Assembly (NCBI GenBank): GCA_900547225.1
Contig: URFW01000003.1
Coordinates: forward strand, 13,054-77,053
DNA length: 64,000 bases
Reading direction: 5' to 3'
Source: an uncultured Mycoplasmatota bacterium
GTDB lineage: Bacteria; Bacillota_I; Bacilli_A; RF39; UBA660
Shown here piece after piece: positions 2,554 to 58,207 of this stretch (positions are counted from its first letter, which is position 1; every line of letters starts with the position of its first letter). A program made the position numbers and the translations under genes. The notes below the pieces were generated by a model that was not told where the DNA came from, searched no databases, and saw nothing but the letters and a program-made list of their open reading frames with translations.

Positions 2554-3645
2554 TTAGAATTCTTTTTTGCTTCTTAAAATAAGCTTCTTATTGTTTAGTA
2601 ATCTTTTGTTATTAGGTTCCATCTTTATTGCTATATCAACCCATTTTAAGGATTCATCTATTTCTCCTAAGTAAAACGTACTTATAGAAAGTAAGTCATA
2701 TATTGTGTAATCAAAACTAAAGGGTTCATTTATGTATGTTTTTTCATGAGTCTTAATATCTAGTGCCAAAAGGCAATATTTTTTAACAGCACTAAAGTTA
2801 TTAAGCTCATACTCTAAAAATGCCATTTCAACATATGCATCTCTTAAATAAGGAGCTTCATTAATTGCCTTATTAAGCCACATTTTAGCTTCTTCATATC
2901 TTTTTAAATATTTGTAGCATCTTGCTATAAAACGCATAGAAGCTGCTCTTTCATCTTTCCATGTTGCAGACTTTAGTGAAAGATGATAAATAAGTGTATC
3001 TATTGCTTCATTTAATTTTCCATAATACATATATTCTCTTCCTAAATAATGAACGTTTCTATCATTATAAGGATCTTCTTTTACAGATAATTCTAATAAA
3101 GGAAGATAACTACTTCTTGATTTAGAACTATCTGGATAATGATCAACTATTATGTCATTTGTAGTAGCCCAAACTTCATTGCTTCCAGTATATTTTAAAA
3201 CTTCATGAACCGGATTTATCCATTTAAAATTTTTTCTCGCATGTATTTTCTCATAGTAAAAACTTACCTTAGGGTTCTTATTTTCATCATGACTCCAGTT
3301 ATAAATATATCTTACGTGATTTACTTTTTCATTTTCTAATATTTCTTCTAGTTTTTCTCTCCAATTAGGACTTATTACTTCATCAATATCTATACATACA
3401 CATATATCAGCATCGAGTGGTACTAACTTTAAAGATTCATTTCTTGCAACATCAAACCTCCAAGGTTTTATTTCTTTAGTAGTTACTTTAGCTCCTAATT
3501 CTTTTAATATTTTAACAGTATTATCAGTTGAACCAGTATCTAAAACGTATATGCCGTCAGCACTCTTAACTGACTCATACCATCTTTTAGCAAATTTTTC
3601 TTCATTTTTACTTATGGCATAAACATATATTTTTTTCTTTTTCAT
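2554..3645 (-). CDS. family 2 glycosyltransferase with C-terminal TPR repeats
   Basis: N-terminal GT-A signature (VLDTGSTDNT ... DADICVCIDIDEV, a DxD-like motif) and C-terminal TPR-like Y/A/L-rich helices (KSATWKDERAASMRFIARCYKYLKRYEEAKMWLNKAINEAP...). This is the architecture of SunS-type and spore-surface glycosyltransferases. Confidence 0.8.
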   Translation of the reverse strand: MKKKKIYVYAISKNEEKFAKRWYESVKSADGIYVLDTGSTDNTVKILKELGAKVTTKEIKPWRFDVARNESLKLVPLDADICVCIDIDEVISPNWREKLEEILENEKVNHVRYIYNWSHDENKNPKVSFYYEKIHARKNFKWINPVHEVLKYTGSNEVWATTNDIIVDHYPDSSKSRSSYLPLLELSVKEDPYNDRNVHYLGREYMYYGKLNEAIDTLIYHLSLKSATWKDERAASMRFIARCYKYLKRYEEAKMWLNKAINEAPYLRDAYVEMAFLEYELNNFSAVKKYCLLALDIKTHEKTYINEPFSFDYTIYDLLSISTFYLGEIDESLKWVDIAIKMEPNNKRLLNNKKLILRSKKEF

Positions 3646-12661: not shown

Positions 12662-13417
12662 ATGAAAAAAGGTAAAAAGATATTCCTAATAATTTTGGCT
12701 ATAATATTTATAATTATGTTTTTAATAGGTGTTATGGTAGTAAAGGACTTAAAAGAAGAAGATAAGTTAAGAGATGATATTTCTAGCATAAATGAACTTA
12801 TAAATAGTGATAATCCTGATGATAAATTAATTAACAAAAAACTAAAAACTTATGTTACAACAGGAGACAACTTATCACTAGAAAAAGCTGTTAAAAGATA
12901 TTATTTAGATTCTTATGACTTGGTTAAAAAATATAATAATATAGTCAATGTAGAAAAAATAAGTAATCTTGTATCAATAAATAATTTTATGTTTGATGGA
13001 AAAGATTTTAATATTTCAAAAAATTATATTAATGATATAAATAATAACTTAGATGAAGTAGTAAATGAGGTTAGTGAACAATTATCAGATAAAAATAGAA
13101 ATAAATATTTTGAAAAATATAAATTAGATTCATATTATAAAGATTTATATAATGAGCTTACTTTATCATTTGACTACTTTGGTTCAGAAAAGAGTTTTAG
13201 AAAAAATGTTAATGAACTAAAAGAACTTGTTGGTTTAATTAGTGATACGTTAAATTATTTATCCGATAATAAAAGTCATTGGTTGATATCAAATGATACA
13301 ATTATTTTTGATTCAAAGGAAAAACTAAGTGAATTTGGAATACTATTATCAAAAATAGAGGATAATAATGAGTATATAAATCAAAAAGAAATCACTAAGC
13401 AAGATGAAACATTATAG
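12662..13417 (+). CDS. hypothetical membrane-anchored protein
   Basis: N-terminal signal-anchor followed by a 220-aa Asn/Lys-rich body with no motif. Confidence 0.5.
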   Translation: MKKGKKIFLIILAIIFIIMFLIGVMVVKDLKEEDKLRDDISSINELINSDNPDDKLINKKLKTYVTTGDNLSLEKAVKRYYLDSYDLVKKYNNIVNVEKISNLVSINNFMFDGKDFNISKNYINDINNNLDEVVNEVSEQLSDKNRNKYFEKYKLDSYYKDLYNELTLSFDYFGSEKSFRKNVNELKELVGLISDTLNYLSDNKSHWLISNDTIIFDSKEKLSEFGILLSKIEDNNEYINQKEITKQDETL

Positions 13418-51324: not shown

Positions 51325-51936
51325 ACTTATAAAGATTATAGAAAAATAGAGAAAATCGCAGAACTGTTTAGAGTTGAGGAACAATTAGTAAGGTGCAGAA
51401 TAAATGAAGAGATAAGAAGTGAAAATAATAAAAAAGAAATATATATAGATGAATCAACTGTAAAACCAAAACCTGATGTGAAAATTAAAAAATAAATTAA
51501 TTTAAGAAAAGAATAATATAATTAGATTATAAATTTTTTCTATCTAGAGGGGATTAAATTGCTAAAAATATAAAAAATACAAAAAGAAAATTAAATTATT
51601 TTAGTAATTTTTTCTTTTTTTGTATAAAAATAAAAACTTACGAACTTTTAAGTCCGTAAGTTGATTTCAAATGGAGCCCTTATGGTTCTGGTAAAACAAC
51701 CATTAAAAGCAACAATTTATAGGTAGTAATAACTACTAACTAAAATTAGTATAACATGGTTTTAGTAAAATTAACCAACATTTTAATATTTTAAGTAAAT
51801 AAAATGATATAATAGGAACTGAAAGACAAATAGTAATTTGTATAAGAAATTATATTAGTAAATGAAATAAATTTAATAAAAAATTAATTGTTTTTGTATA
51901 TATATATGTTATAATATGCTAAAGGAGAATTTATAA

Positions 51937-52890
51937 ATGAGAGGTTGTAATAAAAAGAAAAAAGCAAAGTATATAGTAATAGTTTTTTTTGCAATAATAA
52001 TACTTGGAAGATTTTTTATACCTTGGGCGATTGAACCAGAAAATTTTAGAGATACAAAAAATAAAATAAATAGTTTTATAAACAGATATACTATACCAGA
52101 TTCATATAATGCAAAATCATTGATAGCGGTTGATCTTTCAAATAATAACGATTTTGTTTCTAAAAGAGCAAATGAACAACAAACTCCTGCAAGTTTAGCT
52201 AAATTATTTGTTATTGACTATGCAACAACACTCGTTGATTTAGATGATGTAGTTTTGGCAAAAAATGAAGCAATTTCATTAACAAAACAAGGTTCATCTG
52301 TTGCAAACATTAAAGAAAAGAAATATTATGTTAAAAATTTATTTGCTGCAATGTTAGTACCATCAGGGAATGATGCAGCCTATGTATTAGCTGATTATTG
52401 TGGAGGCATTATATCTCCTAAAGCTACTACTAGCAAAGAGCGAATAGAAGTCTTTATGAAAAACTTGAATGAATATTTAAAACAAAATGATTATAAGGAT
52501 ACTATTTTATATGATCCAAGTGGATTTGATACAGAAGCCCATACAACTGTATTAGACTTAAAAGAAGTTGTAATGGATTTATTAAAGAATGAATGGTTTA
52601 AGGATATAGTTTCTCAAACTTCATATACAGCAACTTTACCAGATGGTAGCATGCAGACTTGGAAAAATACAAATACATTCCTTGATCCTACATCAGAATA
52701 TTATAACAAAAATGTAATTGGTGTAAAAACAGGTTCTTTATCTGATGATTTTAATTTAGTAGTATTATATAAAAAGCATGGAAAAGAATTTTTGATATGT
52801 AGTTTAGGTTCACAATCTAATTATTCACGATATGATGATGTTAATTATGTTTTAAAAACAATAGATGAATCAGATTATTTGAAAAAGTAA
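51937..52890 (+). CDS. D-alanyl-D-alanine carboxypeptidase (peptidase S11 / PBP5-like, low molecular weight)
   Basis: SxxK (PASLAKLF), SGN (PSGNDAA) and KTG (VKTGSL) active-site triad. Signal-anchor present. Confidence 0.8.
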   Translation: MRGCNKKKKAKYIVIVFFAIIILGRFFIPWAIEPENFRDTKNKINSFINRYTIPDSYNAKSLIAVDLSNNNDFVSKRANEQQTPASLAKLFVIDYATTLVDLDDVVLAKNEAISLTKQGSSVANIKEKKYYVKNLFAAMLVPSGNDAAYVLADYCGGIISPKATTSKERIEVFMKNLNEYLKQNDYKDTILYDPSGFDTEAHTTVLDLKEVVMDLLKNEWFKDIVSQTSYTATLPDGSMQTWKNTNTFLDPTSEYYNKNVIGVKTGSLSDDFNLVVLYKKHGKEFLICSLGSQSNYSRYDDVNYVLKTIDESDYLKK

Positions 52891-52905
52891 GTTAAAATAA
52901 AGGAG

Positions 52906-53526
52906 ATGATTATTATAGAAGTGATATATAGCATTTTATGTGCTGTTTTACCGTGTACTATTTACTTTACAGCAAGAAAAAGGAAAGGGTATCATTTATC
53001 AATTTTAGCAATGCTAATTTTCGTTTTATATCTTTGGAAAGTATATGATTTAACTGGTGCAGGAGGTTTAACAAATATATTTTATGCACCAAAAGGTGGA
53101 GATAATACATCAATTATTCAAGCTAATATTAATCTCATCCCTTTTAACATCATAGAGAAAACTTTTTACTTAAATATTTTAATGCTTGTTCCTTTTGGAT
53201 TTTTAGTTCCTTTTATTTGGAAGAACTATCGTAAATTTTATAAAACATTATTTTTAGGGGCAGGTTTTTCATTAATGATAGAAATATCTCAATTAATCAC
53301 GAACCGTACAACTGATGTCAATGATTTAATTGCTAATACAATGGGTGCATTAATCGGATATATTATTTGGCAAATAGTTTCATTATGTTTTGGAGAGCAT
53401 TTAAAAAAGCCTGTAAAAGGTAAGAGTGATGTAATATGGTATATACTTTTAAGCTTTTTGGGTATGTTTTTCTTATATTATCCTTTTTGGTTTGCTTGGA
53501 ATATTGAACCGCTTATTTTTCAATAA
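52906..53526 (+). CDS. VanZ-family membrane protein
   Basis: The VanZ-like core (NLIPFN...MLVPFGFL...LMIEISQL...DVNDLIANTMGALIGY), about 5 TM. Confidence 0.75.
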   Translation: MIIIEVIYSILCAVLPCTIYFTARKRKGYHLSILAMLIFVLYLWKVYDLTGAGGLTNIFYAPKGGDNTSIIQANINLIPFNIIEKTFYLNILMLVPFGFLVPFIWKNYRKFYKTLFLGAGFSLMIEISQLITNRTTDVNDLIANTMGALIGYIIWQIVSLCFGEHLKKPVKGKSDVIWYILLSFLGMFFLYYPFWFAWNIEPLIFQ

Positions 53527-53565
53527 AATAAATTTTCAAAACATATAAATTACAATTTATCGTTG

Positions 53566-53595
53566 AGATCAACTTTAATAGTTGATCTTTTTTAC
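53566..53595 (+). terminator. rho-independent terminator after vanZ-like gene (AGATCAACT-ttaat-AGTTGATCT plus T-run)
   Basis: Read directly from the sequence. Confidence 0.6.
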
Positions 53596-53856
53596 TTTTT
53601 ATAAATAGGATGATTTCATATATAAATATTAGTATATGTGAAAAAGCAGGATAAGAAACTTGTGCAACTATACTAAACTTTTCCTTATTTCATAAGGGTT
53701 TAGTGTTACACAATACTGATTTCGTACTTACGAAATTCAACCTACGAGGTAGGTTGATATTAGGTTGATATGAAAGTTAAACCTTATAAAATAAAGCATT
53801 TAATATTTATTAAATCATCCTACTTGATTATTTTTTGTAAAATTTATAGGATGATT

Positions 53857-55763
<1,907 letters not shown>

Positions 55764-55904
55764 ATATCTTTAACTTCCTATAAAATTCAATATAATATTT
55801 TGTTTGCTTTTTCATGTAGTACCTCACTTTCTAATAAAAGACTAGATACTGCTTCCTTTATTGGTTTTATATTGTATCATTTATTTTTAGTTTGTCAAAC
55901 CATA

Positions 55905-56174
55905 TTAGTTCATTTTTAAGTATTGTTCTAAATCTTTAAACTTAATTTTGTTATTATAACCGTTTATAAAGACATTTTCACTATCTTCAAATATTAAGTA
56001 GTCATTGCCTTTAACTTTCAAAATATGGGGTTTTACATAGGCTATATTAGTATTTTTAAGATTTATAATATATCCATTAGTAAAGGAATATTCCACATAA
56101 GCAAACTTACATATCATTTCAATCTTTCTTTTTAATTCTTCACTTATTACAAGTTTTTTAGTTTCTATTGTCAT
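55905..56174 (-). CDS. hypothetical small protein between recombinase and tRNAs
   Basis: 89-aa ORF with no motif. Confidence 0.4.
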   Translation of the reverse strand: MTIETKKLVISEELKRKIEMICKFAYVEYSFTNGYIINLKNTNIAYVKPHILKVKGNDYLIFEDSENVFINGYNNKIKFKDLEQYLKMN

Positions 56175-56270
56175 AACTCATCACTTTCCTTTCTTAAATA
56201 ACAAAAAAACTAACTATTTCTAGTTAGCATTTATTACTTAAACTCGAAAAGTTCGAGTTTCCTATCAATC

Positions 56271-56345
56271 TGGAGCAAGTGAGGAGAATCGAACTCCCGT
56301 CTCAGCCTTGGCAAGGCCGCGTACTAGCCGTTGTACTACACCTGC
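56271..56345 (-). tRNA. tRNA-Gly (anticodon GCC)
   Basis: Reverse-complement folds as acceptor GCAGGTG/CACTTGC, D-arm GTAC-AACGGCTA-GTAC, anticodon stem CGGCC/GGCTG with loop TTGCCAA, T-arm GGGAG-TTCGATT-CTCCT, and 3' TCCA. Confidence 0.85.
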
Positions 56346-56353
56346 AAATAAAT

Positions 56354-56428
56354 TGGAGGGGCCAGCCGGATTTGAACCGGCGATCGTGGAGTTGCAGTCC
56401 AATGCCTTACCAGCTTGGCTATAGCCCC
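56354..56428 (-). tRNA. tRNA-Cys (anticodon GCA)
   Basis: Reverse-complement: acceptor GGGGCTA/TGGCCCC, anticodon loop CTGCAAC, T-arm GCCGG-TTCAAAT-CCGGC, and 3' TCCA. Confidence 0.8.
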
Positions 56429-56588
56429 ATTTCTTTTCGTGCAACCAAATTATAACATATAATACCAGTAAATAGCAATAGTAATTTTTTATATTTTATG
56501 CAAAAAAATATAACAAGTTGCTATTTTTTCTAATAAAAAATTCATATTTTGTAAATAATATTACTAATAATGAGCCTATATAATCAAT

Positions 56589-56606
56589 TTAACCTTGCAA
56601 GGTTAA
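56589..56606. promoter_or_regulatory. perfect 18-bp palindrome TTAACCTTGCAAGGTTAA upstream of the first small HTH gene (candidate operator that includes a -35-like TTGCAA)
   Basis: Read directly from the sequence. A near-identical copy lies at 56951-56968. Confidence 0.6.
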
Positions 56607-56652
56607 TAGTTTTTGGCCTATTAAAGATAAAATTGTAATAGGTGGTACAATT

Positions 56653-56907
56653 ATGAAAAAAAGAAAGGTAATAGAAGCTATTGCAGAGAAAATTAATAAT
56701 ATAGTAAATGAAAGTAACGGAAAACTTACGGTAAATAAGATAGCATCTAAAAGTTGTCTTACCCAAAGTACTGTTCAACATATAATGGATAAAAGTTACA
56801 AGGATGTTAAACTATTAACCATTGTAAGATTATGTGATGGATTGGGACTTACTTTAAAAGAATTTTTCTCTGATGAACTTTTTGATAATATAGATAGAGA
56901 TGACTAA
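56653..56907 (+). CDS. small HTH DNA-binding protein
   Basis: 84-aa ORF with RBS AGGTGGTACAATT-ATG. Central LTVNKIASKSCLTQSTVQHI HTH-like segment. Confidence 0.55.
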   Translation: MKKRKVIEAIAEKINNIVNESNGKLTVNKIASKSCLTQSTVQHIMDKSYKDVKLLTIVRLCDGLGLTLKEFFSDELFDNIDRDD

Positions 56908-56950
56908 GTTAAAAGACTTAGTTTTTTTTTATTAGAAGAATATGATATAA

Positions 56951-56968
56951 TTAACCTTGTAAGGTTAA
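56951..56968. promoter_or_regulatory. second copy of the palindromic operator (TTAACCTTGTAAGGTTAA, 17/18 symmetric) upstream of the second HTH gene
   Basis: Read directly from the sequence. Confidence 0.6.
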
Positions 56969-56985
56969 CTTTTTGGAGGTAAGTT

Positions 56986-57207
56986 ATGTCAACAGAGTTT
57001 AAACTATATAACGTAAATGACGAAGATTTATATAGAAATAAGTCACCAAAGGAAAAATTTGAGATACGAAAACAAATGATTGTTATGGCAAAAGAAAGGG
57101 GAATTAAACCAACAGCTAGATATTTTAATACTTATCCTGCAACTGTTAGGAGAATAATTAGGTTATATAATGAAAAGGGAGAAGAAGGACTTATTACTAA
57201 AAGATAG
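56986..57207 (+). CDS. small HTH protein resembling the N-terminal HTH of IS630/Tc1-type transposases
   Basis: AKERGIKPTARYFNTYPATVRRIIRLYNEKGEEGL has the same pattern as transposase orfA HTH domains (…G-x-S…A…F-x-V-S…V-x-RW-x-x-RY-x-E-x-G…GL). RBS GGAGGTAAGTT-ATG. No transposase catalytic ORF follows. Confidence 0.55.
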   Translation: MSTEFKLYNVNDEDLYRNKSPKEKFEIRKQMIVMAKERGIKPTARYFNTYPATVRRIIRLYNEKGEEGLITKR

Positions 57208-57304
57208 TAAGTTTTTTTATTTGACATTCATTTTAAAAATGTGTAACTAAATATTTGAAAAATTCATAATAAATAATATAATAATATTATAGGAGATGAA
57301 ACTT

Positions 57305-58207
57305 ATGAAATATATTATAGATACAGATCCAGGGGTTGATGATGCAATTGCAATTATGTTAGGTATAAAAAATAAATTAGACGTAATAGCATTTACTTTA
57401 GCAAGTGGTAATATTCCAGCTTCTAAGTCGGAAAAAAACATAAAAATAATTCAAGAATTTTTAGGAACTAATATAAAAATGTATAGAGGCAAAAAAGAAA
57501 ATAAATGTAATCATGAAACAGCTGAGTATGCACATGGTAAGGATGGATTAGGATATGCTGTTTTTACTGATTCTATGATAAGGGGCAAGTTTTCTAAAAT
57601 GAAAGCTGAAGATTTGATAATCAAAGCATCTAAAAAGTATAAAGATGATTTAACGATTATTTGTCTTGGACCTTTAACAAACATAGCAAATGCCTTAAAA
57701 AAAGATCCTAAATTAGCTTATAGAGTAAAACACTTAGTTATAATGGGAACGACTTATGATCCAGAAGTTAAAAAGCCATACTTAGAATTTAATGTTAACG
57801 TGGATCCAGAGGCTGCAAAAAGTGTTTTAAAGGCACCTTTTGATGATATAAAACTAGTTACTCATGAGATAGGAGTTAAGTCATTTATAGAAAAAGACTA
57901 TGTTTTAAATTTACGTAATTCCGATAATCTTTTATCAAGATTTGTTGGTTTGATATCGGAAAAATACATAGAATTTAGTTATGAACATTATGAAACTATA
58001 GGTCTTGGTACACCTGACCCTACAACGATAGCTAGCGTAATAGATCCAAGTATTGTTACGTTTAAGCCTTGTAATGTAAAAATTATATCTAATGGAAATG
58101 GAAAAGGAGAGTGCTTTATAACGCTTGCTGATAATAGTAACGTTAAGGTATCAACCGATTTTGATTTAGAAAAATTTAGAAAACTATTTAAAGAAACATT
58201 TAACTAA
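57305..58207 (+). CDS. inosine-uridine-preferring nucleoside hydrolase family protein
   Basis: N-terminal DTDPGVDDAIAI aspartate cluster, about 300 aa. Start taken at ATG 57305, which is 9 nt after AGGAG. Confidence 0.85.
   Translation: MKYIIDTDPGVDDAIAIMLGIKNKLDVIAFTLASGNIPASKSEKNIKIIQEFLGTNIKMYRGKKENKCNHETAEYAHGKDGLGYAVFTDSMIRGKFSKMKAEDLIIKASKKYKDDLTIICLGPLTNIANALKKDPKLAYRVKHLVIMGTTYDPEVKKPYLEFNVNVDPEAAKSVLKAPFDDIKLVTHEIGVKSFIEKDYVLNLRNSDNLLSRFVGLISEKYIEFSYEHYETIGLGTPDPTTIASVIDPSIVTFKPCNVKIISNGNGKGECFITLADNSNVKVSTDFDLEKFRKLFKETFN

Follow-up and report, generated by a model that had tools for sequence, protein, structure and literature searches.

The 64,000-nucleotide stretch analysed here (the window; contig URFW01000003.1 of an uncultured Mycoplasmatota bacterium, positions 13,054 to 77,053) contains two small helix-turn-helix (HTH) genes in tandem, the open reading frames ORF1 and ORF2, each preceded by one copy of an 18-bp palindrome. 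The palindrome is most likely the binding site of the ORF1 protein, which would autoregulate its own gene and control the ORF2 promoter through two operators. The whole is most likely a regulatory cassette of an ordinary kind and not the end of a transposon put to new use. ORF1 (56653..56907, + strand) codes for an 84-residue XRE/Cro-C1-type HTH protein, a predicted binder of both palindromes by its family, its fold and its co-occurrence with the site. ORF2 (56986..57207, + strand), characterised by domain and homologue searches, codes for a 73-residue stand-alone HTH_28/HTH_23 protein and is the predicted target of ORF1 regulation. An earlier, sequence-only reading of this DNA had cast ORF2 as the DNA-binding domain of an IS630/Tc1-type transposase, domesticated as a repressor, with the terminal inverted repeat (TIR) of the former element reused as its operator. 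That the palindrome serves as the operator of a small HTH regulator now has strong comparative support, and sequence comparisons point to ORF1, not ORF2, as the likely binder.

Both copies of the 18-mer lie where the sequence-only reading had placed them. The first, operator O1 (TTAACCTTGCAAGGTTAA, 56589-56606), is a perfect 18-bp palindrome, and the second, operator O2 (TTAACCTTGTAAGGTTAA, 56951-56968), is a palindrome with one central mismatch; neither is assigned to a strand. The distance of 45–50 nt to the start codon that had been given for both copies holds for O1, which ends 46 nt before the ORF1 ATG, but not for O2, which ends 17 nt before the ORF2 ATG. In the 64 kb the 18-mer has no match beyond this pair at up to three mismatches, against an expectation of 0.08, and two copies were reached in none of 100 shuffles, so the sites are non-random. 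They are also the sole matches in the window to the degenerate family motif TTARYC-N6-GRYTAA. Across strains the centre of O2 is polymorphic (TTGTAA or TTATAA) and the arms are invariant. A genome-wide search for further copies, which had been named as a check on the transposase proposal, was made with the exact 18-mer and found it on no other contig of the representative genome, Clostridium sp. CAG:594; because it is not dispersed there, the 18-mer does not behave as the ends of an insertion sequence (IS).

Comparative analysis reveals that the site accompanies the ORF1 family. A scan for TTAACCTTGNAAGGTTAA in one genome per species returned 49 loci, mostly single matches in unrelated phyla, and both copies occur together at only one of them, L065, which belongs to the same species, Clostridium sp. 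CAG:594. An ORF1 homologue with 35–100% identity adjoins the exact 18-mer in six of the 49 (L065, L053, L049, L028, L057 and L026). In the last four, the homologue is merely 35–56% identical, and no ORF2 homologue is detected at E <= 1e-3, the sequence of L057 ending soon past the site. When ORF1-family loci were gathered by protein similarity and the arm motif was scored with up to two mismatches at 30–130 nt upstream, it was present in 11 of 14 members with at least 46% identity (background 6 hits per 148 kb; P about 1e-24). The three remaining members carry symmetric arm variants, TAATC...GATTA (L086/87) and TTAACG...CGTTAT (L098). Gene product gp56 of Brevibacillus phage Davies, an annotated HTH regulator with 44% identity to ORF1, has two TAACG-N6-CGTTAA sites in the divergent intergenic region upstream of it. 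In all, TTAAC(C/G)-N6-(G/C)GTTAA lies upstream of genes of this 84-aa XRE/Cro-type family in about 15 other loci, phage Davies included, and the site ends 42–48 nt before the start codon in L053, L049, L028, L057, L026, L089, L092, L095, L096 and L086/87.

The second site is also a recurrent feature of these loci. It comes after the ORF1-family gene and a T-rich terminator, with a -10 box joined to it or a short way upstream, and the gene behind it varies: ORF2 in the window, L053 and L065; a membrane or secreted protein of 292–319 aa in L080, L089 and L094; a protein of 89–108 aa in L049, L086 and L090; a 245-aa protein in L092; and a 460-aa protein in L028. Tandem duplicate sites with a 19-bp period are present in L089, L090 and L092. 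A compilation of 27 sites has six conserved outer positions, and the three central pairs are complementary in only about half of the sites. Where one arm has changed, the other has changed with it (C-G has become G-C at pair 6-13 and T-A at pair 5-14). The central 6 nt vary among homologous sites (GCGTAC, ACACAA and TTGTGT, for example). Judged from the alignments, conserved arms with symmetric changes are what a homodimer operator with 6-bp half-sites would be expected to show, and are not the mark of a structured RNA. ORF2-family genes with 51–71% identity are found elsewhere, alone and without an ORF1 neighbour, and TTAAC-N8-GTTAA occurs nowhere in their loci. The motif thus goes with ORF1 regardless of ORF2, and ORF2 occurs elsewhere without the motif; by this double dissociation the site is assigned to ORF1.

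The ORF1 family extends to contigs of viral or mobile character. Scanning of viral contigs yielded two isolated matches to the 18-mer, and a scan with the ORF1 profile yielded one locus, L080 (IMG/VR contig IMGVR_UViG_3300045988_181655). The ORF1-like gene at this locus (2880-3183) aligns only from residue 25 on, and the frame upstream of it is interrupted, either because the gene is a pseudogene or through an error of assembly. Motif-like sites remain up- and downstream, and several small ORFs and one of 238 aa come before the gene. In L028 (255-3500), a contig of a metagenome-assembled genome labelled Ignavibacteriales, the cassette adjoins ORFs that, read by eye, resemble an integrase, a 246-aa XRE-type repressor and an excisionase. 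Such neighbours suggest that integrative elements carry the cassette from genome to genome. For a Firmicutes-type cassette the taxonomic label is odd, and it may reflect horizontal transfer or mis-binning.

Evidence from structure is consistent with the assignment of ORF1. A sequence search of the PDB retrieves one solved structure, 3b7h (prophage Lp1 protein 11), with E 9e-6 from the single sequence and 2e-14 from the profile. The AlphaFold2 (AF2) model of ORF1 (mean predicted local distance difference test score, pLDDT, 90) is a five-helix XRE domain with helices at residues 6-20, 27-34, 38-45, 54-64 and 68-72. With this model, Foldseek returns 3b7h as the best match, followed by C.Esp1396I, C.AhdI and C.BclI and then by ClgR, SinR and DdrO, all at probability 1.00. 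Residues N28, K29, A31 and T37-Q38-S39-T40 of the HTH are invariant in the family alignment, and ORF1 homologues have precomputed matches to PF01381 and PF13443. A predicted lambda-repressor-like fold with the HTH at helices 2-3, together with the sequence match to a solved member, places ORF1 in the XRE/Cro-C1 class. The sequence-only reading had described both genes as small HTH genes, and this description stands: for ORF1 through the family profile and the predicted fold, and for ORF2 through a direct match to Pfam HTH_28 (E 4e-8). Co-occurrence, fixed spacing and symmetric half-site changes indirectly support ORF1 as a dimeric binder of an inverted-repeat operator.

The promoter regions were read with the homologous loci as a guide. 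A putative -10 element of the ORF1 promoter (TAAAAT, 56628..56633, + strand) lies 21 nt after O1 at a position that is conserved among loci: a -10-like hexamer is found 21–22 nt after the site in 10 other loci and in L098, with the variants TAAAAT, TACAAT, TATACT, TAGAAT, TACGAT and TAAACT, and in phage Davies TATGCT lies 20 nt after the site. If TAAAAT is the -10 element, O1 would occupy about -51 to -34, centred near -42, and overlap a poor -35 region; the ORF1 promoter has no recognisable -35 hexamer. A TATAAT at 56579-56584 was also considered as the ORF1 promoter, and it was put aside as a minor alternative, since it is unconserved in homologous loci, unlike the hexamer 21 nt past O1. The ribosome-binding site of ORF1 is AGGTGGT (56640..56646, + strand), and (t)aggtggt also precedes the start codon in homologous loci. 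TTGCAA and TTGTAA, the centres of the two sites, had been taken by the sequence-only reading for -35 elements. This was rejected, as O2 leaves no room for a promoter downstream, the -10-like hexamer of conserved position lies 21 nt after the end of O1, and the centre of O1 is unconserved in homologues.

ORF1 is followed by an intrinsic terminator (56897..56930, + strand) with a 9-bp low-GC stem, an AAAA loop and nine U (folding energy -10.1 kcal/mol, z = -2.9). As this terminator lies between ORF1 and ORF2, the two genes are separate transcription units. The putative ORF2 promoter has an extended -10 element (TGATATAAT, 56943..56951, + strand) whose final T is the first base of O2, and O2 would span about -7 to +11 of this promoter. 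The same fusion of (T)ATAAT to TAACC is present before the downstream gene in L053, L049, L028, L094 and L095, T-runs precede the downstream -10 element in L049, L028 and L095 as well, and in L080, L090, L092 and L086 a -10 box lies 0–11 nt upstream of the second site. The ribosome-binding site of ORF2 (GGAGG, 56975..56979, + strand) begins 6 nt after O2. A promoter and terminator consensus scan reported no + strand promoter at O1 or O2 and no terminator, because neither promoter has a -35 match and the terminator, with fewer than three G-C pairs, is too rich in AT for it. After ORF2, folding of 57208-57295 gives no terminator-like structure. A strong sigma-70-like promoter, TTGAAA-16-TATAAT (57255-57282), stands ahead of the nucleoside hydrolase gene. 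Read-through from the ORF2 promoter into the hydrolase gene and the following Cu/Zn superoxide dismutase (SOD) gene is possible, which would place both partly under ORF1 control.

The sites and how they are spaced, their recurrence beside ORF1-family genes and the fold of ORF1 are observed, and they suggest the following model of binding, dimer state, promoter use and direction of regulation. An ORF1 homodimer would recognise TTAACC-N6-GGTTAA through two 6-bp half-sites whose centres are 12 bp apart. At O2, which is fused to the extended -10 element and covers the putative transcription start, bound ORF1 would block RNA polymerase and repress ORF2. Since O1 lies at the promoter of ORF1 itself, upstream of the -10 element and overlapping the poor -35 region, ORF1 is proposed to autoregulate; the geometry would fit either occlusion of the -35 region or class-II-type activation, comparable to lambda CI at PRM and to restriction-modification (R-M) controllers at OL. 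ORF2 would be the cargo of the switch in this lineage, and elsewhere ORF1 with its two-operator cassette would control unrelated genes. Several points weigh against this model. The promoter assignments depend on consensus hexamers and conserved spacing, and binding by ORF1 is itself a prediction. The ORF1 of the window, taken alone, falls under the Pfam gathering thresholds for HTH_3 and HTH_26 (E 0.01–0.04; 16.3 bits against a cut-off of 23). Members of the ORF1 family below about 45% identity have no recognisable motif, with the exception of L026 (35%), and the co-occurrence is therefore a trait of one subfamily. Finally, in this lineage ORF2 may also contact the site or modulate ORF1.

ORF2 belongs to a tight family of its own. 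All 102 homologues, with 51–99% identity, are stand-alone proteins of 43–103 aa, and a search of 1.84 billion representatives with the ORF2 profile returns a tight family of small proteins only. The genes reside in core-genome contexts: adjoining spoIVA, adjoining proS, or ahead of genes for 165-aa and 75-aa proteins in a three-gene operon. The N-terminus M-x-x-E-x-x-L-Y-x-V is invariant and is accompanied by a second motif, G-x-K-P-x-A-R...T-Y-P-x-T-V-R; in homologues with 48%–99% identity the first 10 residues (MSTEFKLYNV) and GxKPxAR...TYPxTVR are near-invariant. Such conservation of an N-terminal tail is unusual for an HTH protein of 70 aa and suggests a specific partner or function. The AF2 model of ORF2 has a pLDDT of 91. 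Matches of ORF2 to designer pentatricopeptide repeat (PPR) proteins in the PDB, with E down to 5e-16, were discarded; they contain zero individually significant stretches and are a repeat-summation artefact of the string 'GIKP..Y.NT'. No ORF2 relatives were found in annotated phage genomes. It is conceivable, though unlikely, that the ORF2 family comprises widely conserved stand-alone transposase-type HTH proteins of about 70 aa with a dedicated cellular role, encoded at core-genome positions in several lineages of gut Firmicutes and captured in the CAG:594 lineage under a phage-derived, controller-protein-like bistable switch to form a two-tier cascade. The leaders of the ORF2 homologues in L068 (about 2930-2995) and L077 (about 2925-2995) share a conserved hairpin, GAGTAGCTAC...GTAGTTACTC followed by a T-run. 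With a TATAAT box immediately upstream and the ribosome-binding site downstream, it may be a transcription attenuator or a cis-regulatory RNA.

The HTH pair is part of the core genome and lies outside the neighbouring island, on the conserved side of a tRNA integration hotspot. Exact copies of the ORF1 and ORF2 proteins are present in thousands of gut-metagenome assemblies. Their right-hand neighbours are constant: genes for nucleoside hydrolase and Cu/Zn SOD, then a GerA/GerC/spore-permease operon and RecG. The left side is variable; some assemblies have no island there, and in others the island carries either DUF6414 or a serine recombinase. Clostridium sp. CAG:594 (L065) matches the window at 98.3% identity, through both sites and as far as 56271. 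The match stops exactly at this position, which is the 3' end of tRNA-Gly (56271-56345, - strand) and the island boundary; islands therefore integrate there. In the window the strain-variable island extends from about 51400 to 56270, abuts the 3' end of tRNA-Gly and includes a serine recombinase gene (53877-55751) and an 89-aa gene (55905-56174); in other strains the spot is empty or is taken by a DUF6414 set or by another serine recombinase. Island-free strains (L001, L011-L014) keep ORF1 and ORF2, and L053, from a second species (ORF1 82% and ORF2 79% identical), has the same layout of the pair, tRNA-Cys/Gly and a serine recombinase. The sequence-only reading had set the pair next to a junction of tRNA and serine recombinase, which is true of this window, but the pair is on the conserved side of that junction and is present where no island is.

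A gene for a protein of about 90 aa (89 aa in the window) is found beside the tRNA-Cys/Gly pair in different species, at 55905-56174 (- strand) in the window, 2017-2298 in L053 and 6134-6406 in L065. It has no Pfam or NCBIfam match and shares the motif (I/V)..(E)ELK..(I/L)..(M/I)C(K/D/E)F...(F/I)(T/I)NG. It adjoins the serine recombinase of the island in the window and in L053, and no recombinase was seen in the 8-kb L065 locus. Its product may serve recombination, as a directionality factor or as an accessory protein.

The proposal that ORF2 is a domesticated IS630/Tc1 DNA-binding domain acting as a repressor, on a palindrome derived from the TIR of the parent element, is very improbable and already largely refuted. 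It draws on the matches of ORF2 to HTH_28 and HTH_23, domain families that ORF2 shares with the N-terminal HTH of IS630 and IS481 transposases and that are common at transposase N-termini, and on distant profile matches: at about 50 bits, and over the HTH part only, the ORF2 profile retrieves proteins of 337–383 aa with HTH_28+HTH_32 N-termini in addition to small proteins. Foldseek on the ORF2 model finds nothing at E < 0.001, and the N-terminal domains of TnsB that head its results are not significant. The NCBIfam models for the two transposase families score equally and very low, with 15.0 bits for NF033545 (IS630; cut-off 100) and 15.3 bits for NF033577 (IS481; cut-off 224), and the stand-alone sizes and core contexts of the ORF2 homologues also weigh against the proposal. 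Unlike these transposases, ORF2 has a single HTH without a second HTH_32, no DDE/DDD catalytic domain, no flanking TIRs and no multicopy distribution. The sequence-only reading had correctly remarked that no catalytic ORF follows: ORF2 ends at 57207 and the next gene is the nucleoside hydrolase. The reuse of a TIR is unsupported, as the motif accompanies the ORF1 family and not ORF2 and the 18-mer is not dispersed; moreover, TIRs place one arm at each end of an element, and a perfect palindrome at a single locus is unlike such a layout. By these comparisons ORF2 is a transposase-type HTH by domain class only, with no apparent sign of recent truncation, of IS630 affinity or of a link to the palindrome. 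An IS with TTAACCTTG in its TIRs and a transposase with an ORF2-like N-terminus would revive the proposal.

Other explanations concern the site itself. Both proteins might act there, with ORF2 as a co-repressor, anti-repressor or competitor in a CI/Cro-like two-regulator toggle. Both genes have the site in their promoters, both products are HTH proteins, and the pair is kept together in at least two species (the window and L065, and L053); this is nonetheless quite unlikely, given that CI/Cro-type toggles are normally divergent and ORF1 and ORF2 are in tandem. Since the second operator controls non-HTH genes in other lineages and ORF2 relatives elsewhere lack the site, ORF2 as the cargo of an ORF1 switch is the simpler reading. 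It is extremely improbable that the palindromes work at the RNA level, as hairpins in the 5' leaders with an effect on mRNA stability or translation. Each 18-mer could form a 7-bp hairpin, and arm changes across loci are compensatory, but the structures are weak (-5.6 and -5.4 kcal/mol, z = -2.4 and -1.6), and an Rfam scan of 55500-58000 identifies two tRNAs only and no family at the palindromes. In addition, the ORF2 -10 element overlaps O2, so that the transcript would start inside the site, the conserved ORF1 hexamer is downstream of O1, which would stay untranscribed, and the tandem sites of L089, L090 and L092 with their 19-bp period fit cooperative protein binding. It is hardly credible that the palindrome is an attachment (att) or accessory site of the serine recombinase, or a site of a global host regulator, unrelated to ORF1 and ORF2. 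A large serine recombinase gene and the integration hotspot at tRNA-Gly lie within 1 kb of the palindrome, yet island-free strains keep both genes, the L065 identity spans both sites, the island boundary at 56271 is on the other side of the tRNAs, and sites stand beside ORF1 homologues with no recombinase nearby. A global regulator would be expected to have many sites, against two in 64 kb and no further exact 18-mer in the reference genome.

Under the preferred reading, in which ORF1 binds the site, a previously unnamed subfamily of small XRE regulators gains a probable operator consensus, TTAAC(C/G)-N6-(G/C)GTTAA, and a two-promoter architecture; the subfamily ranges over gut Firmicutes, contigs with mobile-element genes and Brevibacillus phages. 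The cassette is shared with phages and mobile-element contigs and is here fixed in the core genome beside a tRNA hotspot. Beyond annotation the significance is slight, and a domesticated transposase with a recycled TIR is unsupported by the sequence. If ORF1 does bind as predicted, the cassette could be put to use as a compact, portable repressor/operator pair for low-GC hosts.

Among known regulators, the MqsA antitoxin has a similar operator, given in PMC4894380 as 5'-AACCT-N3-AGGTT. MqsA has an XRE-type HTH and a near-identical half-site, the sites of the window reading AACCT-N4-AGGTT. The spacing is N2-3 in MqsA and N4 here, however, and the ORF1 family conserves only TTAAC(C/G), with positions 7 and 12 variable. 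ORF1 also consists of the HTH domain only, without a zinc-binding N-domain or an MqsR-like partner, and sequence and profile searches of the PDB with ORF1 retrieved no MqsA structures; the likeness is a resemblance only. The small Cro/CI-type repressors of phages are also similar: 3b7h is the best match to ORF1 by both sequence and fold, and gp56 of phage Davies, with two sites in a regulatory region dense with HTH genes, resembles the ORF1 cassette. In contrast to phage repressors, the ORF1 cassette of this species belongs to the core chromosome: every strain examined has it, the synteny to its right is fixed, and it does not lie in a prophage immunity region. Its genes are in tandem, not divergent.

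The controller (C) proteins of R-M systems are small XRE-fold dimers (about 75–80 aa) that bind inverted-repeat operators at their own promoter, with activation followed by repression, and C.Esp1396I in addition represses a second gene, through a separate operator (OM) that covers the promoter of that gene. C.Esp1396I, C.AhdI and C.BclI are the best fold matches to ORF1 after 3b7h (TM 0.7–0.75). Sequence identity to ORF1 is only about 20%, and the ORF1 operator is unlike the C-box, which is of the GACT...AGTC type. No R-M genes stand beside ORF1, whose neighbours are ORF2, the nucleoside hydrolase, the Cu/Zn SOD and the Ger operon, and none appear as a pair in the ORF listings of related loci, whose downstream genes were not scanned with a domain library; because it has no adjacent R-M genes, ORF1 is not a member of the C proteins. 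C proteins have an OL+OR pair, to which the tandem sites of L089, L090 and L092 bear a likeness; the ORF1 promoter of the window, with its single site, differs in this. The proposed action of ORF1 at O1 and O2 nevertheless follows the two-promoter logic of C.Esp1396I. By analogy, the layout of O1 and O2 and the predicted fold support the view that ORF1 works like a C protein, though it is not one of them.

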